DNA of 64,000 bases. Origin: a virus. Its lineage: Duplodnaviria; Caudoviricetes. How positions within the stretch are numbered: the stretch's first letter is position 1; each line of letters starts with the position of its first letter. Shown here piece after piece: positions 38,583 through 47,048 of the stretch. Where the stretch lies: the IMG/VR virus record IMGVR_UViG_2788500332_000006, positions 1 to 64,000 of that record; one strand, 5' to 3'. The translations under genes were made by a program, and so were the position numbers. The notes under the pieces were generated by a model. The model made no database searches, was not told where the DNA came from, and saw nothing but the letters and a program-made list of their open reading frames with translations.

Positions 38583-38653
38583 TCGAGTGGCCCGCTACGG
38601 CGGGCCTCTCACTTTCCACCCCCCGCAATTATGCACCCATGGAGAGCAAAATC

Positions 38654-39559
38654 ATGAATGCCCTCACCCCGATTCTGTCCGCCTCCTCCACCCTCGCCAC
38701 CCGCGCGATGATCGTCTCCTTGCGCATCTCGCAATGGTCCGGCCGGCGGCTCGACCGCGAGGTCACCAAGGAGGTGAACGACCAGCACGGTGCCGCCTCG
38801 GACGCCGGCCGCTACAACAAGCTGCTGCTGCCGAAGGAAGCCCTCGAGGATATCGAGCGGATCGTCAGCGAAACCCGCAACGAATTCCTCAAGCGCACGC
38901 TGCCGTGGATGCAGGACGGTAGCCGCATTATGGCCGCCGACGCCTACCTCTCCCATATGGCCTGGCTCCGATCGCAGTCGGCAAAGTTCGACGCGGCCGT
39001 CGACCAGTTCATTGCCCAGTATCCCGGCTATGTCGCTGCCGCCGCTGCTCGCCTCAATGGCATGTTCAAGGCGGCTGACTATCCCGAGGCGGAAGAGCTG
39101 CGCGCCAAGTTTGCGATGGAGTGCAAGGTTCTCCCGGTCCCGACCTCGGACGACTTCCGTGTCGCCATCTCCGACGCACAGGCCGAGCGCATCCGCTCCG
39201 ATATCGAACAGCAGGTCGGCGAGGCGACGCGCGCCGCCGTGCGCAACATCTTCGAGCGCATCGCCGAACTGGCGGAGCGCATGGTCAACCGCCTCAACGC
39301 CTACAAGCCCGCCACCAAGCCCGGCGAGCGGTCGGAAGGTGTCTTCCGGGACTCGCTGGTCGAGAACGTCCGCGACTTGATTGCCGTGCTGCCTGCGCTC
39401 GACATCACCGGCGATCCGCGCCTCGCCGACCTGGCGGAGCGGATGAAGGTGCTCGCCGAGCACGATGCCAGCGTGCTCCGCGAAGACGCCGGCAAGCGCC
39501 GCGACGTTGCCAACGAGGCGCAGGCCATCCTCGACCAGATCGGCGATTTCCTTGCGTGA
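38654..39559 (+). CDS. DUF3150-like phage protein
   Basis: AM.VSL.IS.WSGRRLD, AGRYNK.LL, TLPW...G.R, YP...EL..KF, FRDSLVEN. Confidence 0.75.
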   Translation: MNALTPILSASSTLATRAMIVSLRISQWSGRRLDREVTKEVNDQHGAASDAGRYNKLLLPKEALEDIERIVSETRNEFLKRTLPWMQDGSRIMAADAYLSHMAWLRSQSAKFDAAVDQFIAQYPGYVAAAAARLNGMFKAADYPEAEELRAKFAMECKVLPVPTSDDFRVAISDAQAERIRSDIEQQVGEATRAAVRNIFERIAELAERMVNRLNAYKPATKPGERSEGVFRDSLVENVRDLIAVLPALDITGDPRLADLAERMKVLAEHDASVLREDAGKRRDVANEAQAILDQIGDFLA

Positions 39560-39572
39560 AGGAGGCGGGCCG

Positions 39573-39983
39573 GTGGCAACGCCGCCCCGAACCACCGTGG
39601 CAACGTTCCTCCTCATCCCCGTCATCGGGGAGATACAGCCCTACTACGCCCCGCTGCTCGGCGTGGCGTTCAACTCCATCTCGCAGGCGATCACCCGGTT
39701 CTTCGACGAGCCGTTCGAGCATGTGTTTGTCCTCTATGGCGGGCACCCGCGCGACATGTTCGTCGGCGAGACGTCGTCCATCAACGGGCGGCATATCCGC
39801 AATGTCAGGGCCACCGACATCTACCGCGCCAACTTTGTGCATTCCCAATACCATCACGTCTCTTGGATGCCCGGCGAAATTCTGATGCCAGACTTCAGAT
39901 ACACCAGGCGGGAAATCCTTGAATCCGCGCCGGCGATCTGTGGCCCTGCCGTGCTGTTTCCCGATACCATCGTTTGGCGCTAA
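39573..39983 (+). CDS. Hypothetical protein (DUF3846-like)
   Basis: AGGAGG RBS with GTG start; DMFV.E, N.RAT.IY, I.GPAV. Confidence 0.6.
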   Translation: MATPPRTTVATFLLIPVIGEIQPYYAPLLGVAFNSISQAITRFFDEPFEHVFVLYGGHPRDMFVGETSSINGRHIRNVRATDIYRANFVHSQYHHVSWMPGEILMPDFRYTRREILESAPAICGPAVLFPDTIVWR

Positions 39984-40025: not shown

Positions 40026-41012
40026 ATGAACCTGCAGACCGCAGCGCAGGCGCTCAACGCCTTTCTCGACGCCGACATCCCCGTCATGATGTGGGGCCCG
40101 CCCGGTGTCGGCAAGTCGTCCATCGGCAGGGACATCGTGGCCGAACGGAACTGGGGTCTGGTCGACTTCCGCGCCTCCACCCGCGATCCGGTCGCCCTCA
40201 TGGGCCTGCCCGACCTCACCGCCGACACCACCAAGTGGAAGGTTCCCGACGAGTTCCCGCAGCCCGACCGCGACGGTGCCGAAGGCATCCTGTTCCTCGA
40301 CGAGATCAACGCCGCCGCGCCCTCGATGCAGGCCGCCATGTTCGGGCTGGTGCTCGATCGCCGCGTTGGCGATTACCAGCTCCCGCCGGGCTGGCGCGTC
40401 GTGGCCGCCGGCAACCGCCAGTCCGACCGTGCCGCCGCGCAGCGCATGCCGTCGGCGCTCGCAAACCGGTTCGCGCACATCGATGTCGACCCGGATGTCG
40501 ACACTACCGTTCACCACTTCAACAAGATCGGAGTCGACCCGATCGTCGTCGCCTTCCTGCGCTGGCGGCCGGCCCTGTTGCTCGACATGAAGAATGATCA
40601 GCTCCGCGCGTTCCCGACGCCGCGGGCGTGGGAGCAGGTCGGCAAGGTCGTCCAGCAGCCGTCTCCGCTGCGGCTGGCTCTCATTGCCGGCGTCGTCGGC
40701 GACGGCGCCGCCGCCGAGCTCGAGGGCTTCATCCGCGTCTACCAAGGACTGCCGTCGCTCGATCTGGTGCTGAGCAATCCGAGCGGCGCCAAGGTGCCCG
40801 AGGACTCGTCGGCGCGCTTCGCCATAAGCTCGGGCCTCGCCCGCAAGGTGACCGACAAGACCATCGGCAACGCCATGATCTACATGCAGCGCCTGCCCCG
40901 AGAGTTCGAGATCCTGTTCATGACGGACGCCGTTCGGCGCGACAGCAAGCTCTCGCACACGCAGGCCTTCGTCGACTGGACGGTTCGGAATCAGGACGTG
41001 GTGTTCGGATGA
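40026..41012 (+). CDS. MoxR-like AAA+ ATPase
   Basis: Walker A GPPGVGKS, Walker B ILFLDE, AAGN, ALANRF, FPTPR.W. Confidence 0.93.
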   Translation: MNLQTAAQALNAFLDADIPVMMWGPPGVGKSSIGRDIVAERNWGLVDFRASTRDPVALMGLPDLTADTTKWKVPDEFPQPDRDGAEGILFLDEINAAAPSMQAAMFGLVLDRRVGDYQLPPGWRVVAAGNRQSDRAAAQRMPSALANRFAHIDVDPDVDTTVHHFNKIGVDPIVVAFLRWRPALLLDMKNDQLRAFPTPRAWEQVGKVVQQPSPLRLALIAGVVGDGAAAELEGFIRVYQGLPSLDLVLSNPSGAKVPEDSSARFAISSGLARKVTDKTIGNAMIYMQRLPREFEILFMTDAVRRDSKLSHTQAFVDWTVRNQDVVFG

Positions 41013-41356
41013 GCGTCGCCATCGTTTGGATCGCCGGCCCGATCGGTTACGCAAAGACGCTTGTCGAGGGCGGCCAGTCATTCCGCTGGTCCTTCATCGC
41101 CGGCGACGGCCTCGGCTGTATCCGGCGGTACACCCTGGCATTCGAGACGAAGACCCGGGAGTTCCGGGTCATCGCGCCAGATCGCAACGGCTGGGAGCAG
41201 GCGCATGCCGACCTGCTAACCAACCTGTATCGGCCGATCTCCATCCTCCGGTCCGACCTGCCGAAAGGGAAGATCCTCGACGCCCTGCGCGGGATGCTCA
41301 CCGATCGCGACCTTTCGATAGTGTCCGCGGCCTCCCTCCTGAGAGCAGCATCATGA
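41009..41356 (+). CDS. Tandem paralogue 1 (unknown function)
   Basis: ATGA-coupled to the ATPase; shares motifs with the next four genes. Confidence 0.8.
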   Translation: MSVAIVWIAGPIGYAKTLVEGGQSFRWSFIAGDGLGCIRRYTLAFETKTREFRVIAPDRNGWEQAHADLLTNLYRPISILRSDLPKGKILDALRGMLTDRDLSIVSAASLLRAAS

Positions 41357-41688
41357 GACAAGTCATCGATATCGACCGGCGCGGATCATACCGAGGCTAT
41401 TCGGCTCTCAACTTCGTCTTCGTCGTCACTTTCATCAACGGAGATTCCGCTGAATACGCGCTCCTTTACGATGCTGAGGAGCGAAATTTCCGTGCGGAAA
41501 AACAGGGCCACCGTCCCAAAGATCGAATCCGCTTGGCATGGTTGAAACGCCAGGGGAAGCAGCCCTTCACGATCAAGGTTCGGTTGGCAGACCACCTCAA
41601 GACCCTCCTGACTCGAGAGGAGATGGCAGCATGCGCGGCGATGTCTCTGGAGGGGCCAAAAAGGAATTCAAGATGGCCGAGATTCTGA
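41353..41688 (+). CDS. Tandem paralogue 2
   Basis: ATGA coupling; shared motifs. Confidence 0.8.
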   Translation: MRQVIDIDRRGSYRGYSALNFVFVVTFINGDSAEYALLYDAEERNFRAEKQGHRPKDRIRLAWLKRQGKQPFTIKVRLADHLKTLLTREEMAACAAMSLEGPKRNSRWPRF

Positions 41689-41984
41689 AAATCGAAGGGC
41701 CGGTCAGCCGCGAGGATGAATGGGGCTCGACCATCTTCGAGTTCCACGTCACCTACGAAAGCGGGCGTGTCCTCCGGTGGCTGCTGGAGTTCAGCCACAA
41801 CAATCGGACGTTCTCAACCCGGCCAGCCGGTTCACCCGATCTCCCATCGGTCTTCCCCAAGATGCTGCTCGCCTTGGGCTATCGACCGATAGATATCCGG
41901 TCCGGCGGTCTTCGCAACCACTTGCGCAGCATGCTTTCCCCCGAGGACATCGCCATTTGCGCGCAGGCCTCGCTCAGGAGGTGA
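41673..41984 (+). CDS. Tandem paralogue 3
   Basis: AAGGA RBS; shared motifs. Confidence 0.8.
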   Translation: MAEILKIEGPVSREDEWGSTIFEFHVTYESGRVLRWLLEFSHNNRTFSTRPAGSPDLPSVFPKMLLALGYRPIDIRSGGLRNHLRSMLSPEDIAICAQASLRR

Positions 41985-41987
41985 ACC

Positions 41988-42329
41988 ATGCCGAGGATCA
42001 AAGCCGTCTGGGGGCCGAGAAAAACGGAGGAAGGTCGCGCCCGGATCACTTGGTGGTTCTCCGGCATGAAAGAGGATGGAGAACTTTGCGAGTGGAAGCT
42101 GGTCTACTTCGCCGACACCCGCCGGTTCACCTGTCGCCGCGTCATGTCCATGGTCGCAAAGGAACGGGCTGGAAAACTTGAGAGAAAGGATCTCTTCCGG
42201 ATTCCGTCGGCCAACGGCGATGCGATCGAAGAGGGCTTCGTCACCGATATCCTGAAGAAGCGTCTCACCCCGGAGCATTTGGCCAAATGCGCCAAACTCT
42301 CCCTGACTTATGGGAGGGCACATGGCTGA
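41988..42329 (+). CDS. Tandem paralogue 4
   Basis: AGGAGGT RBS; shared motifs. Confidence 0.8.
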   Translation: MPRIKAVWGPRKTEEGRARITWWFSGMKEDGELCEWKLVYFADTRRFTCRRVMSMVAKERAGKLERKDLFRIPSANGDAIEEGFVTDILKKRLTPEHLAKCAKLSLTYGRAHG

Positions 42330-42687
42330 CTTCCGCAAAGTGCTGGGGCCGTTCGGCCGGGAGGTCGTGAAGGTCGGCGACGTGCGCATCACGTGGGGCT
42401 TCATCGGCATCCTCGCCGACTATGAGACGGCCCACTGGACGCTGACCTATCAGGCGGAGCATCGAAACTTCTATGTCCGCAGGAGTGAACAAGTGTCTCT
42501 ACGCGTGCGCGACGAAAGTGGCCTGATCCACTATCGCGCGGCCGGCCTCCCTATCCACCTGGACATGTTCATCAAGAGCGACAACCGCATTGTCGCGAGC
42601 GGGACCATCACCAACGTGCTCCGCTCCCGGCTCTCGCCGGAAGACATCGCGCTCTGCGCCCGACTTTCCATGAAGGGAACATCATGA
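42322..42687 (+). CDS. Tandem paralogue 5
   Basis: GGAGG RBS; shared motifs; coupled to the peptidase-vWA gene. Confidence 0.8.
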   Translation: MADFRKVLGPFGREVVKVGDVRITWGFIGILADYETAHWTLTYQAEHRNFYVRRSEQVSLRVRDESGLIHYRAAGLPIHLDMFIKSDNRIVASGTITNVLRSRLSPEDIALCARLSMKGTS

Positions 42688-43847
42688 TGATCGCCGAGGA
42701 CAAGATACTCGCCGCCCGCACGGCTCTCATGTGGGACCACCCGTTCTTCGGGGCACTCGCTGTCCGGCTCACCACCATCGACGCGACCGATGACCCGCGC
42801 ATCGACACGATGGCAACCGACGGCCGTAACCTGTTCTTCGACCGGAAGTTCGTCGACGGGTTGAAGAAGCCGGAGCTGGTGTTCGTGCTGGCCCACGAGG
42901 TCATGCACAACGCGCTCGAGCACCACATCCGCCGGCAGACACGCGATCCACGGCGCTGGAACAAGGCATGCGACTACGCCATCAATGGCGAGCTCGCCGA
43001 TACCAAGATCGGGACCATGCCGAAGGGCGGCCTCATCGATCCCGCCTACACCGGCCTCTCGGCGGAAGAAATCTATCGCCTTCTGCCGGAAGAGAATGGC
43101 GGCGGCGCGGATGGTGGGCAAGGCGGACAGGACCCGGGCGGGTGCGGCGCCGTGCTCGACGCGGCGCCGGCGCATGATGAGGCCGCCCTCGCAGAGGCCC
43201 GCGCGGAGATGCAGACGGCCGTCAGGCAGGCGGCGAACATAGCCAAGGCCGCCAATGCCGGCAGCCTGCCGGCGGGCATCCAGCGCCTCGTGGACGAGCT
43301 TCTGAAGCCGAAGGTGGACTGGCGGTCGGTGCTGCGCCGCTTCGTCGACGAGTCCACCACACGCGACTTCGCCTGGTCCCGGCCTAACCGCCGGCTGGTG
43401 CCGCATGGGGTGATCACCCCCGGCACAGTCTCCATCGGCGTCTCGCATATCGTGATCGCCGTCGACACCTCCGGCTCGATCGACGCCGAGATCCTCCGCG
43501 CCTTCGCTGCCGAGATCAACGGCGCCTTCTGCGAGGGCGCGGTGGACCGCATCACCGTGATCTATGCCGACGCCGCGGTTCAGCATGTCGAGGAGTTCGA
43601 GACCGGCGACGAGCTCATGCTCCATCCGGCCGGCGGCGGCGGCACCGCCTTCTCCGATACCTTCCGCAGGATCGAGCGGGACTATCCCGGCGCCCGCGCC
43701 TGCATCTATCTGACCGACCTCTTCGTCAGCGACTTCGGCCGGGAGCCATCCATGCCCGTCTTGTGGGGCGTCTACGGCGACCCGCGCGCCTTCGACCACC
43801 TCGCCGCCACTGTGCCGTTCGGAGAGCCGATCAGCATCGCTCCCTGA
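42684..43847 (+). CDS. Zinc metallopeptidase-like + vWA protein (DUF2201 family)
   Basis: PFFG, TMATDG, HEVMH, N.ACDYAIN, VDWR..L, MIDAS DTSGS, GGGGT, LTD. Confidence 0.92.
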   Translation: MMIAEDKILAARTALMWDHPFFGALAVRLTTIDATDDPRIDTMATDGRNLFFDRKFVDGLKKPELVFVLAHEVMHNALEHHIRRQTRDPRRWNKACDYAINGELADTKIGTMPKGGLIDPAYTGLSAEEIYRLLPEENGGGADGGQGGQDPGGCGAVLDAAPAHDEAALAEARAEMQTAVRQAANIAKAANAGSLPAGIQRLVDELLKPKVDWRSVLRRFVDESTTRDFAWSRPNRRLVPHGVITPGTVSIGVSHIVIAVDTSGSIDAEILRAFAAEINGAFCEGAVDRITVIYADAAVQHVEEFETGDELMLHPAGGGGTAFSDTFRRIERDYPGARACIYLTDLFVSDFGREPSMPVLWGVYGDPRAFDHLAATVPFGEPISIAP

Positions 43848-43889
43848 CCACACCACCAATCGCCGCTCATGGCACCAAGGAGACCTCAC

Positions 43890-44285
43890 ATGTCCGCGAT
43901 CCTGACCAAGCTGGAATTCGACGCCTTTCTCGAAGAGAACCGGCAGGCACCTTCCCTCGAAATCGCCGAACCGACCTGGCGCGAGGCCGGCCCCGATCAC
44001 GCCCCGCGCGCCAAGCTCAAAGGCATCTGGACTATCGGCGGTCTGAGCCTGCACGTGGTGGCTCTTGAATGCCGGCTCGTGGCCCCGAGCGACTTCGATG
44101 AGGAAACCGGCGATGCCAAAACGCTGCCTTGGGACGCCCCGGGCGGCCTGATCGATTTCGCCCTCGGCGTTGAGGGCTTCGACATCGGAGAGCTCTGGTC
44201 CGCCCATGGCATGGAGGGCCACGCCGAGACCGCCATCATCGACGGCCGGCATTACCTGATCTTCGCCTCGCCCTTCTGCACCTAA
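43890..44285 (+). CDS. Hypothetical protein
   Basis: AGGAG RBS with hairpin motif. Confidence 0.8.
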   Translation: MSAILTKLEFDAFLEENRQAPSLEIAEPTWREAGPDHAPRAKLKGIWTIGGLSLHVVALECRLVAPSDFDEETGDAKTLPWDAPGGLIDFALGVEGFDIGELWSAHGMEGHAETAIIDGRHYLIFASPFCT

Positions 44286-44349
44286 CGCCATCTTCACGGC
44301 CACGACGTTCCGCCCTATCCTCCGGCCGACAACTTGGCTGGAGAGCAAC

Positions 44350-44697
44350 ATGTTCAAGCGTTCACTCTTCCTTGGCATAGCGCTGGCGATGACAGTGGGA
44401 TCGTCGGTCGCAGCTGATGATCCAGTTTTCGAGTTTGACTGGCTGGCGATATTCCGAACCGCCAACAAGTTTTGCGTTGGACAGAACTTCTCGGCAGAAG
44501 GCATCGACTTGCGCATGAAGCAGATTGGTAGGCGCCTCGGCTGGTCCCCGCAAAAACTCGCCGACGAAACTCTGTCTCGTGAGATCACCACTGAGATTGA
44601 CTTGCGCGTTAGTCAAACAGCCTTTTGCAACACTGCGAGAATGGGACGTCGGCAATACGGTGACGACTATCTCCGAAGAGTAGGCGTCATCTACTGA
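44350..44697 (+). CDS. Secreted hypothetical protein (lower GC)
   Basis: Signal peptide, two Cys, GGAG RBS. Confidence 0.75.
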   Translation: MFKRSLFLGIALAMTVGSSVAADDPVFEFDWLAIFRTANKFCVGQNFSAEGIDLRMKQIGRRLGWSPQKLADETLSREITTEIDLRVSQTAFCNTARMGRRQYGDDYLRRVGVIY

Positions 44698-44810
44698 ACC
44701 AAGAGCGATCGGCGTGATCTTCCCATTTCCCTAGCAGCACAACATCTCCAGGCCGGGCCACGCAGCCCGGCCTTTTCTTTTCCCCCAATCATGGGCTCAT
44801 GGAGACCGCG

Positions 44811-45008: not shown

Positions 45009-45502
45009 GATTCACGAGGAAGCAGCGCTACGGCCCCTACGAGGACACGTCGCGCAAGCGGGCGGCTCTCGCCAGGAAGCAAAGGCTCGAGCGCGAAAGG
45101 CTGCCGCTGCTGGCCGAGATGATCGCCGAGCAGCAGCCCGATGCGGACACCGTGATGGCGGAGCGGGCGGTGAAGTGGACCATTTGGGAGCAGGAGACAC
45201 GTGACAGAAGGGCCGCGAACTGGCGACGCGCCCGCGCCCAGCTATTCGCCTATGGAGACAACATCCGGCGAACGCTCACCCGCCTGTGGAACTCCGCACC
45301 GTACCCGGCCACGCCGGAATACCTGCTCGACATGCTCCACCAGTTCGACCGCGGCAACCTCGACCCTGATAACCCGCCCTGGGTTTACCGAGGCCCCGGC
45401 CTGAAGACCGTCGACTTCACCGACATAGTCAACCGAGCGCGCGCCCGCCAAGGGCTGCCGCCTCTCGACGCCCCCGCCACTCATGGCACCAATGGAGACT
45501 GA
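45005..45502 (+). CDS. Conserved phage/plasmid hypothetical protein
   Basis: TSRKRAA..RKQR.ER..LPL.A..IAE.QP, WRRAR, YP..P.YLLDML. Confidence 0.75.
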   Translation: MRFTRKQRYGPYEDTSRKRAALARKQRLERERLPLLAEMIAEQQPDADTVMAERAVKWTIWEQETRDRRAANWRRARAQLFAYGDNIRRTLTRLWNSAPYPATPEYLLDMLHQFDRGNLDPDNPPWVYRGPGLKTVDFTDIVNRARARQGLPPLDAPATHGTNGD

Positions 45503-45503
45503 C

Positions 45504-47048
45504 GTGAACGCCCTTGTCCCACGCCCTTCCATCGAACAGATCGTCTCCTTCCGAGACCAGGCGATCTCCCGGTACGAGCAGGCATTCGAGAAGATCGCCG
45601 AGGCTGACGCCGCGGTTCGCGAGGCTGGCGCCTTATGGGAAGCCGCATCTCCGGGAAAGTCCGGCGAATGGTCGAGTTCGACCGACGAGATCAAGAACTT
45701 CCTCAACGCAGTCCGGCTGCCCGACCGCGATCAATATCTGCGCACGGCACGACGTCTGATCGACGTGACGGTCTGGGCGCACGTCATCGACATCGCCGGC
45801 ATCGAACCGCTGATGGACAGTCAGGCGAAGCAGGAACTGCGTGACCAGATGCGCTATATCCCCGAGCGCGTCGACCGCCACGGTGAGCTCATCAATCAGG
45901 ACGAAATCGACAAGACGCTGCCGCCGGTCACCGTTGACAATGTCATGGCGACGCTTGAGCGCTTCCGTGCCGACGCCGAACTGATCTTCCGCCGCGGCAT
46001 CGTCAATGCCTTCACCAAGCTGGACCGCCGCTTCAGATCGCACGACGGTTTCAAGATCGGTTCGCGCGTCATCGTGAACTACCTCATCCGCGACGGCCAC
46101 ATCTACAGCTCAAGCTCCCGCGCGGACATGCTCACCGATATTGAGCGCACCTTTCTCGTACTCGACGGGAAAACGGAGCGCGCCAAGTATGGCCGCATCG
46201 TCGACGAGCTCGATCGAGCGAACCCGTCGTCCTACTTCAATCGGCAGGCCTTCGAGGTGGAGAGCGACTATTTCAAGATCCGGTGCTTCAAAAACGGCAA
46301 CGCGCACCTCTGGATGACGAGAAAGGATCTGGTGAAGAAGGTGAACTTGATCCTCGCCGACCACTACGGCGAGGTTATCGGCGACGGCATGACGAAGGAG
46401 GACGATCCTCTTTCCCCTGACAAGGCGAAGACGACGCCGGCCCGCTACTTCGGCTTCTTCCCGACGCCGAAGGCAGCCGCCGACGAACTGCTGTCGGGCG
46501 CTCGGCTCCTTCGCTCGGCCGACCAGCCGCCACTGCGCGTTCTCGAACCGTCGGCCGGCACCGGCAACCTGGCGCGGCGCTGCTTCTGCCACCTGGAGGA
46601 CTACCCGGAGTACCATCGCCAGCGCTACGGTAGCGAGTACCGCTACGACAACAAGGTCGACTGCATCGAGATCCAGCCCCACCTCGCAATGCAGCTCGAA
46701 GCCGAGGGCATCTACAACCGGGTCACCTGCGGCGACTTCCTGCAGATGCGCCCCGATCCGGCCAACCTCTATGACGTCGTGGTGATGAACCCGCCGTTCG
46801 ACCGGGAGCGCGACATCGACCACGTCGTCCATGCGCTCCAGTTTCTGAAGCCCGACGGCTATCTGACGGCCATCATGTCGGCCGGCACAGAGTTTCGCGA
46901 GACCAGGAAGGCCATTGCCTTCCGCGAGATGATGGAGAAGATGCACGCCAAGTGGTCCGACCTGCCGGCCGGCTCGTTCGCCGAGGTCGGGACCTATGTC
47001 AACACCTGCATCGTCCGCGTCTACAAGGACGGGAGGCGCACCTATTGA
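45504..47048 (+). CDS. DUF4942-domain SAM-dependent DNA amino-methyltransferase
   Basis: FKNGNAHLW; FFPTP, VLEPSAGTG, MNPPF, LPAGSF; GTG start after GGAG. Confidence 0.88.
   Translation: MNALVPRPSIEQIVSFRDQAISRYEQAFEKIAEADAAVREAGALWEAASPGKSGEWSSSTDEIKNFLNAVRLPDRDQYLRTARRLIDVTVWAHVIDIAGIEPLMDSQAKQELRDQMRYIPERVDRHGELINQDEIDKTLPPVTVDNVMATLERFRADAELIFRRGIVNAFTKLDRRFRSHDGFKIGSRVIVNYLIRDGHIYSSSSRADMLTDIERTFLVLDGKTERAKYGRIVDELDRANPSSYFNRQAFEVESDYFKIRCFKNGNAHLWMTRKDLVKKVNLILADHYGEVIGDGMTKEDDPLSPDKAKTTPARYFGFFPTPKAAADELLSGARLLRSADQPPLRVLEPSAGTGNLARRCFCHLEDYPEYHRQRYGSEYRYDNKVDCIEIQPHLAMQLEAEGIYNRVTCGDFLQMRPDPANLYDVVVMNPPFDRERDIDHVVHALQFLKPDGYLTAIMSAGTEFRETRKAIAFREMMEKMHAKWSDLPAGSFAEVGTYVNTCIVRVYKDGRRTY

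Follow-up and report, generated by a model that had tools for sequence, protein, structure and literature searches.

Small paralogous proteins encoded between the MoxR-like ATPase and metallopeptidase-vWA genes of a phage module in Hyphomicrobiales prophages

The window analysed here is a 64,000-nucleotide stretch of viral DNA (positions 1 to 64,000 of IMG/VR record IMGVR_UViG_2788500332_000006). Between positions 40026 and 43847, it carries the genes for a MoxR-like AAA+ ATPase and for a metallopeptidase-vWA protein, and five small genes, designated here as p1 through to p5, were found to lie between the two. The products of p1 to p5 are true paralogues, and both this small-protein family and its link to the ATPase–peptidase pair appear to be undescribed. 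Because the same arrangement recurs in related phages, the five genes are real and probably work with the ATPase–peptidase machine. The favoured reading, to which a probability of roughly one in three is assigned, is that p1 to p5 represent accessory subunits of this machine that act as specificity adaptors; the data cannot separate this reading from those in which the five proteins are clients of the machine, products of independent genes or parts of a hetero-oligomer.

The first-pass annotation of the window had described five tightly coupled genes of 103–121 aa between the ATPase and peptidase-vWA genes, whose products are related in two blocks. Coordinates and peptide blocks were verified for p1 (41009–41356, 115 aa), p2 (41353–41688, 111 aa), p3 (41673–41984, 103 aa), p4 (41988–42329, 113 aa) and p5 (42322–42687, 121 aa), all on the plus strand, and the paralogy was borne out by two comparisons. 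All ten pairwise BLASTP comparisons yielded expectation (E) values of 5e-3 to 5e-17, mostly spanning 80–114 residues. Furthermore, a hidden Markov model (HMM) built from 100 outside members of the family, each no more than 40% identical to any of the five, matched all five proteins with E values of 5e-11 to 3e-29 (for a nominal 1-million-sequence database), four of them at full length and p2 over residues 16 to 104. An N-terminal GP, previously noted for four of the proteins, is present in p1, p3, p4 and p5 and represents the majority state in the family.

Orthologue pairs from three related prophages exhibited ratios of non-synonymous (dN) to synonymous substitution rates (dN/dS) of 0.04–0.38 and, because of these values across three close relatives, p1 to p5 are coding and under purifying selection. 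Between close relatives, the paralogues are 57–93% identical, compared with 94–95% for the ATPase and 88–96% for the vWA protein, and the dN of the paralogues exceeds the ATPase value by a factor of 1.2 to 13. All five paralogues are basic, with isoelectric points of 9.6 (p1), 10.2 (p2), 8.0 (p3), 9.8 (p4) and 9.6 (p5), as opposed to the acidic ATPase (5.6) and vWA protein (5.1). From the ATPase gene (40026–41012) to the vWA gene (42684–43847), the junctions consist of overlaps of 4, 4, 16, 8 and 4 nt and one 3-nt gap, and clear Shine-Dalgarno-like sequences precede p3, p4, p5 and the vWA gene. This layout is indicative of translational coupling of all seven genes and, because the start/stop overlaps run from the ATPase gene through p1 to p5 to the vWA gene, it fits production in fixed proportions.

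The context of the family was surveyed in 25 viral and 18 genomic loci (given L numbers below), which were fetched with the ATPase profile and scanned with local HMMs. The earlier annotation had proposed a search for homologues between AAA and DUF2201 (peptidase-vWA) genes in variable copy number; such homologues were found, with one to six family copies between the ATPase and peptidase-vWA genes in 26 of the 28 loci of a single clade of the ATPase tree (support 0.80), which unites the array-bearing loci. The array is kept within this clade while ATPase identity to the window protein drops to ~53%. No family copy was present in the ten loci outside the clade; the gene pair overlaps by 1–4 nt or is 5–8 nt apart in eight of these, and one displays a 771-bp gap, likewise without a family copy. 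Because the array loci form one ATPase clade and the outgroup pairs adjoin or overlap, the family probably entered the junction of an overlapping ancestral gene pair once and was then retained.

Twelve family members, drawn from the exhaustive HMM search regardless of context, were all shown to be neighbours of at least one of the two genes, AAA_5 ATPase or DUF2201 (12/12, with gene size as the sole criterion for one of them). Three complete host genomes of 5–7 Mb contained family matches at this one locus only. The hosts that were named all belong to the Hyphomicrobiales, i.e. Brucella/Ochrobactrum, Pseudochrobactrum, Ensifer, Rhizobium, Peteryoungia, Mesorhizobium, Hoeflea, Roseibium, Ancylobacter, Devosia and Aurantimonas. 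Among 401 sampled genomes of the host order, with 12 candidates scored per genome, the family was observed only in the seed genome. No match was obtained when p5 was compared by tblastn with 50,697 phage records (cultured phages) or p4 with 72,556 plasmids.

A phylogenetic comparison of 96 copies revealed distinct subtypes, each occurring about once per locus. The p1-type clade (12–14 members from 12–14 loci, support 0.77–0.93) is placed first after the ATPase gene in all cases. The p5-type clade, which represents the most widespread subtype, contains 23 members from 23 loci, one each and usually at the end of the array (support 0.83). The p4-type clade, whose window member is nearest to the family consensus, comprises 16–19 members from 15–18 loci with weak support (~0.55). 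Minimal arrays, observed in L016 and L019–L021, consist of a p4-type and a p5-type gene. The sister genes p2 and p3 fall into a clade of seven members from four loci (support 0.89) and, because this clade is restricted to the closest relatives of the window, their duplication is, on the tree, a recent event in the window's own lineage. As the subtypes occur about once per locus with kept positions, the tree portrays the array as a set of old, differentiated subtypes in roughly conserved order, rather than as freely swapped cassettes or a fast-turning pool. The occurrence of the p1-, p4- and p5-types about once per locus at conserved positions further suggests that the subunits are non-redundant.

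Two rearrangements were identified in L010, one of the surveyed loci. A 126-aa gene (L010:3065-3445) combines ~21 N-terminal residues of a p2-like gene with a complete p3, which looks like the outcome of a deletion between neighbouring paralogues that reduced five copies to four. In addition, the p5 gene of this locus (L010:3783-4166) differs from window p5 in a middle of ~75 nt that is wholly different in DNA, with insertions of 3 and 12 nt, while its flanks and the adjacent vWA gene are 95–96% identical and no retroelement was seen nearby. This middle is best described, from the alignment, as a local replacement or hypervariable patch; a compensated frameshift was ruled out as its cause, as the DNA itself differs. 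Divergent family members were also located outside the ATPase–vWA interval, at L019:5603-5950, L031:3148-3480 and L030:8859-9275, as well as 3' of the vWA gene in L056 and L058. All of these share the strand and the operon of the pair (E values of 5e-5 to 3e-14).

The flanking proteins were assigned to known families. The first-pass annotation had named the ATPase (328 aa) a MoxR AAA+ ATPase. Its AAA+ assignment holds, with matches to Pfam AAA_5 (29.0 bits, cutoff 22) and phrog_1297 (E value of 4e-86) and with intact Walker motifs (GPPGVGKS and LFLDE), in which G27, G29, K30 and S31 of Walker A and D92 and E93 of Walker B are invariant among 38 sequences. Membership of the MoxR family proper did not stand, as the AAA_3 score lies below cutoff (15 versus 27 bits), and because of this 'MoxR-like' is the accurate term. 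The nearest solved sequences are the AAA domains of midasin (E value of 1e-13) and CbbQ. The protein with HEVMH and DTSGS motifs (387 aa) is, as had been annotated, a peptidase-vWA protein, with matches above cutoff to DUF2201_N (163.8 bits, E value of 8e-48) and DUF2201 (71.8 bits, E value of 7e-20), in addition to phrog_1314 (E value of 4e-96). Among 39 sequences, H71, E72 and H75 of its HExxH motif show at least 90% conservation, and H80 is invariant, as are D261, S263, S265, T321 and D345, which constitute a complete metal ion-dependent adhesion site (MIDAS) motif. The peptidase is N-terminal and the vWA domain C-terminal (residues 256–385), with no effector domains fused C-terminally.

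A third gene (38639–39559, plus strand, 306 aa) belongs to the conserved module and is its first gene. Its product is DUF3150-like; the match of the window protein to Pfam DUF3150 is weak (E value of 0.0048), and 19 of 35 orthologues match this family, with a best E value of 3.5e-8. Pfam scans of the 35 orthologues returned only DUF3150 and two chance matches, the presence of the VMAP-C model in the library being unconfirmed. In 35 of 42 distinct loci, the ATPase gene has a DUF3150-like gene of ~300 aa on its 5' side in the same orientation, and the 19–2988 bp between them often contain homologues of a 136-aa gene. Because of this recurrence, the conserved unit is a three-gene module of DUF3150-like, ATPase and DUF2201 genes with two variable junctions.

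A HMMER search of 1.84 billion representative proteins retrieved 125 family matches with an E value below 1e-3, ~110 of which are proteins of 90–150 aa aligned at full length, with ~110 clusters at 50% identity. Long proteins with matches in multiple stretches were considered as fusions and rejected as spurious, as the three inspected (P0082, P0102 and P0124) represent TPR, HYR or otherwise unrelated repeat proteins. No consistent Pfam family match, including to DUF397, was obtained for 131 family members, p1 to p5 had no match in PHROG, NCBIfam or PADLOC, and a sequence-profile search of the PDB returned only a chance match (E value of 0.61). No description of such an array was encountered in the literature or in Pfam, PHROG, NCBIfam and PADLOC, in agreement with the earlier annotation, which knew of none. 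The segment between the two blocks, previously reported as variable among the five proteins, was shown to be so across all 131 members, in which both blocks are conserved and are separated by 27–67 residues (median of 40). Mean column entropy amounts to 3.24 bits in this middle, compared with 2.63 bits in the beta core and 2.08 bits in the C-terminal helices, and conservation falls mostly on hydrophobic residues of the core, together with a single arginine.

An AlphaFold2 model, built with the family alignment for p4 alone among the five proteins, showed four antiparallel strands, one helix and two C-terminal helices, with a predicted local distance difference test score (pLDDT) of 76 and a predicted template modelling (TM) score of 0.66; the loop of residues 70–78 is poorly modelled, with a pLDDT below 50. 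On this model, the family is one of small, basic alpha/beta proteins. Foldseek searches with the p4 model gave no clear match in the PDB (best E value of 0.087), nor was one obtained in BFVD (best E value of 0.029), and the ESM Atlas yielded a best TM score of 0.48 by shape and no usable match by features. In a wide VIA-align search, the best scores were Z 5.2 for SpoVG (72 residues, root-mean-square deviation of 3.8) and Z 4.7 for Pur-alpha (45 residues, root-mean-square deviation of 1.7), both below the best Z of 7–8 typical of models without a clear Foldseek match and thus in the noise range.

The proposed role as adaptors would bring these features together as follows. The family would have entered the junction of the ATPase and metallopeptidase-vWA genes, probably once, in temperate phages of Hyphomicrobiales, and would then have duplicated into at least three old subtypes (p1-, p4- and p5-type), with p2 and p3 duplicating later. 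Translated in a coupled manner from one message shared with the ATPase and the vWA-peptidase, p1 to p5 would serve as accessory subunits of the machine, in which the conserved four-strand sheet and C-terminal helices may form a shared platform for contact with the machine or with fellow paralogues. Each subtype would obtain its own partner through the variable middle of 27–67 residues, such that a different protein is remodelled or cut. In favour of this reading are the linkage and long retention of the array, the start/stop overlaps, the differentiated subtypes, the combination of conserved blocks with a variable middle (replaced in p5 of L010), the basic character of p1 to p5 as against the acidic flanking proteins, and the precedent of MoxR-vWA systems with a third component and tandem small DUF397 genes. 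A more far-reaching version, which is distinctly unlikely, envisages a temperate phage with an ATP-driven unfoldase and a zinc protease tethered through vWA, for which a small set of diverged adaptor paralogues would define the range of targets. The adaptor set would then grow and shrink by duplication, deletion and replacement of the variable middle, and each adaptor would steer the machine to a different host protein, e.g. a defence protein. If true, this would constitute a modular, protein-level counterpart of programmable recognition systems.

Several observations weigh against the proposed role as adaptors. Family copies were found 0.4–3.6 kb 5' of the ATPase gene or 0–2 kb 3' of the vWA gene in 13 of the 28 array-clade loci, so a place between the two genes is not obligatory. 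The pair is intact without the array in L025, L038 and all outgroup loci, and pairs without the family are also present in N4 and jumbo phages. In L038, only 80 bp separate the ATPase and vWA genes, and in the close relative L025 (L025:6987-8012) the whole array is replaced by two reverse-strand genes, whose products are a multi-pass membrane protein of 191 aa and a signal-peptide-bearing protein of 107 aa; since the array is swapped and the flanks are intact, the ATPase–vWA junction behaves as a cassette-exchange site. In Thermus phage phiFa, this junction is occupied by an RNase H gene together with two small genes, and L036 and L041 carry other unrelated genes there, from which it follows that the junction is permissive. 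No fused forms of the family occur among the 1.84 billion representative proteins, and neither flanking protein revealed a meaningful insertion or set of fixed residues that would set array-bearing loci apart. The conserved S/T-P-E-D/E motif may be structural and not a docking element, because it resembles an ordinary helix N-cap. As the family is confined to one clade with a universal module, the co-occurrence may also reflect history alone.

An alternative that is possible, if somewhat doubtful, holds that p1 to p5 are independent accessory genes which landed at a permissive early-operon junction, expanded in tandem and use the operon for expression only, with a function of their own such as nucleic-acid binding, host takeover or anti-defence. 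The unrelated cassettes at the junction (L025, phiFa, L036 and L041), the equally variable junction of the DUF3150-like and ATPase genes (gaps of 19–2988 bp), the family copies elsewhere in the operon and the lack of co-adapted features in the ATPase and vWA proteins are consistent with this alternative. The same applies to the faster divergence of the paralogues relative to their flanks (57–93% versus 88–96% identity), which is typical of accessory genes, to their basic character, with best, noise-range structural similarities to SpoVG and Pur-alpha, both nucleic-acid binders (Z 5.2 and 4.7, respectively), and to their surroundings, a ~17-kb island of small genes without assigned function that also includes an orphan DUF4942 methyltransferase. 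However, the array has persisted at one junction in 26 of the 28 clade loci despite ATPase divergence to ~53% identity, orthologous subtypes keep their order, and the family was never seen away from the module in the 12 look-ups or the three whole genomes. It is, moreover, absent from the cultured phages and plasmids searched, although independent genes of this kind usually spread between contexts.

That p1 to p5 are instead clients of the machine, with the ATPase unfolding or presenting them, and the HExxH peptidase cutting the exposed middle or the machine assembling them into a complex, is unlikely. In most characterised MoxR-vWA systems, including CbbQ/CbbO with Rubisco, NorQ/NorD and CoxD/CoxE, the target is encoded in the same operon, and a client relationship would conform to this norm. 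The translational coupling of the genes, the conserved HExxH motif of the partner protein and the middle segment, which is poorly modelled in p4 (residues 70–78, pLDDT below 50) and length-variable in the family and may thus offer an accessible cleavage site, are compatible with it as well. The cleavage itself is hypothetical, and no conserved motif resembling a cleavage site was found in the variable region of the 131 members. Because the pair works without p1 to p5 in most phages, it must have other targets, and the occurrence of the supposed clients in one clade only would need a separate explanation.

A hetero-oligomer of the paralogues, akin to paired PUR repeats or Whirly-type sheets, as the functional unit, which would regulate or inhibit the peptidase or else form a structure of its own, would agree with differentiated subtypes present about once per locus, with minimal arrays of two different subtypes (p4-type and p5-type in L016 and L019–L021), with a single four-strand sheet plus helices that in PUR and Whirly proteins is paired with a second copy (a weak similarity) and with the multimers proposed for tandem DUF397 small genes (Kaur et al. 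2020, PMC7159879), yet it is highly unlikely, as copy numbers of one to six argue against a fixed stoichiometric complex and the structural similarity lies in the noise range.

The source of the window is a provirus record of 96,978 bp in IMG/VR, estimated to be 96% complete, and the window has a GC content of ~64%. Its minus strand encodes a GpA-type large terminase, a lambda-type portal, a capsid protein, a tail sheath, a tape-measure-like protein and baseplate proteins, and the provirus also specifies a DnaB helicase, a DUF7146-Toprim primase, a C5 methylase and RecT. On account of this gene content, the element is a temperate, myovirus-like phage with a contractile tail, and the initial identification of the DNA as phage is upheld by these genes and by the provirus status. 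On the plus strand, a run of mostly small genes extends from ~31 to 47.8 kb, and the module is situated in this early/accessory region, away from the structural genes.

Within the operon, the 136-aa gene (39573–39983, plus strand) lies between the DUF3150-like and ATPase genes; homologues occur in many related loci, and no Pfam or PHROG match was found for it. Two small plus-strand genes of 138 and 115 aa (43869–44697) follow the vWA gene as the last genes of the operon. The probable operon end is marked by a terminator-like hairpin on the plus strand (44750–44773) with a 9-bp stem, 8 GC pairs and a T-rich tail on its 3' side; it was assigned by position and stem quality, because terminator-like sites are no more frequent in this region than in shuffled sequence. 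The neighbouring 136-, 138-, 115- and 165-aa genes are unrelated to the five-gene family (hhalign probability of at most 0.2%). The product of the 115-aa gene (44350–44697), just 5' of the hairpin, displays a Sec-type signal-peptide-like N-terminus, and an unrelated gene occupies its place in close relatives (23–24% identity); it is probably a moron-type secreted protein. Further downstream (45483–47048), a 521-aa protein combines DUF4942 (E value of 3e-44) with a region of the N6-adenine methyltransferase type, its best PADLOC match being 'mad2' (E value of 7e-16). As no restriction partner was seen, this methyltransferase is likely an orphan, protective methylase.

The ATPase and metallopeptidase-vWA pair is known from hundreds of phages, N4-like and jumbo phages among them, without demonstrated function, and the Hyphomicrobiales prophage clade provides a natural handle on it, as the family was encountered only next to the pair, the two are co-translated and the number of family copies differs between loci. 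If p1 to p5 bind the machine, they mark its recognition subunits or clients and render the function of the module testable; if they are independent accessory genes, they represent an ordinary new small-protein family. Related arrays are present in the culturable strains Brucella (Ochrobactrum) tritici LMG 18957, Pseudochrobactrum asaccharolyticum DSM 25619, Peteryoungia aggregata DSM 1111 and Rhizobium sp. CF080.

Among known systems, the working principle proposed for p1 to p5 would, by analogy, be that of the AAA+ adaptors ClpS, SspB and MecA, in which a conserved docking element and a variable cargo-binding part direct the motor to its substrates, and that of the MIDAS-docking partners of midasin/Rea1, the ubiquitin-like (UBL) domains of Rsa4 and Ytm1. 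The AAA domains of midasin are also the nearest solved relatives of the window ATPase. We know of no AAA+ adaptor that occurs as a tandem array of diverged paralogues. Known AAA+ adaptors were absent from the PDB matches of the profile, Foldseek and VIA-align searches, an absence that leaves such a fold possible.

The flanking genes themselves are members of a known phage pair, represented by gp24 and gp25 of coliphage N4, by PHROG 1297 and 1314 and by the pair from jumbo phages of group 2.2. N4 gp24 matches the ATPase profile (E value of 2e-56), gp25 matches the vWA profile (E value of 1e-46) and carries HELWH and DTSGS motifs, and a DUF2201 homologue is present in 552 phage records. In N4, the two genes lie next to each other, whereas in the window they are separated by five genes of the new family and accompanied by an upstream DUF3150-like gene; similarly, the outgroup prophage pairs are 0–8 bases apart or overlapping without a family member, in contrast to the split pair of the window. 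No functional or experimental study of the pair was found in the literature on DUF2201, DUF3150 and N4-like vWFA. The jumbo-phage pair has been described as a chaperone and co-chaperone, for which a putative role in virion assembly with proteolytic processing was proposed (Iyer et al. 2021, PMC7824862); the window module is not located among structural genes but in the early/accessory region. A virus-encoded MoxR-vWA chaperone pair acting on viral proteins is known from Acidianus two-tailed virus (cited in Iyer et al. 2021, PMC7824862), and, compared by description only, this pair is archaeal and has neither a peptidase domain nor a small-gene array.

The MoxR-vWA ternary conflict systems are arranged in the order third component, MoxR, vWA, and some of them include tandem small DUF397 genes (Kaur et al. 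2020, PMC7159879). The window module and these VMAP ternary systems share the order of a third component, a MoxR-like ATPase and a vWA protein, accessory parts that diverge faster than the ATPase, and a precedent for the attachment of several tandem small-domain copies. They differ in that the third component of the window is DUF3150-like where the ternary systems have VMAP, that an N-terminal metallopeptidase is present on the vWA protein instead of C-terminal effectors, that the small genes are not DUF397, and that the window system is phage-borne rather than located on the chromosome of multicellular bacteria. The general scheme of a MoxR-like ATPase with a vWA partner and extra components is thus already known, and the new protein family adds a variant to a known, poorly understood phage module.

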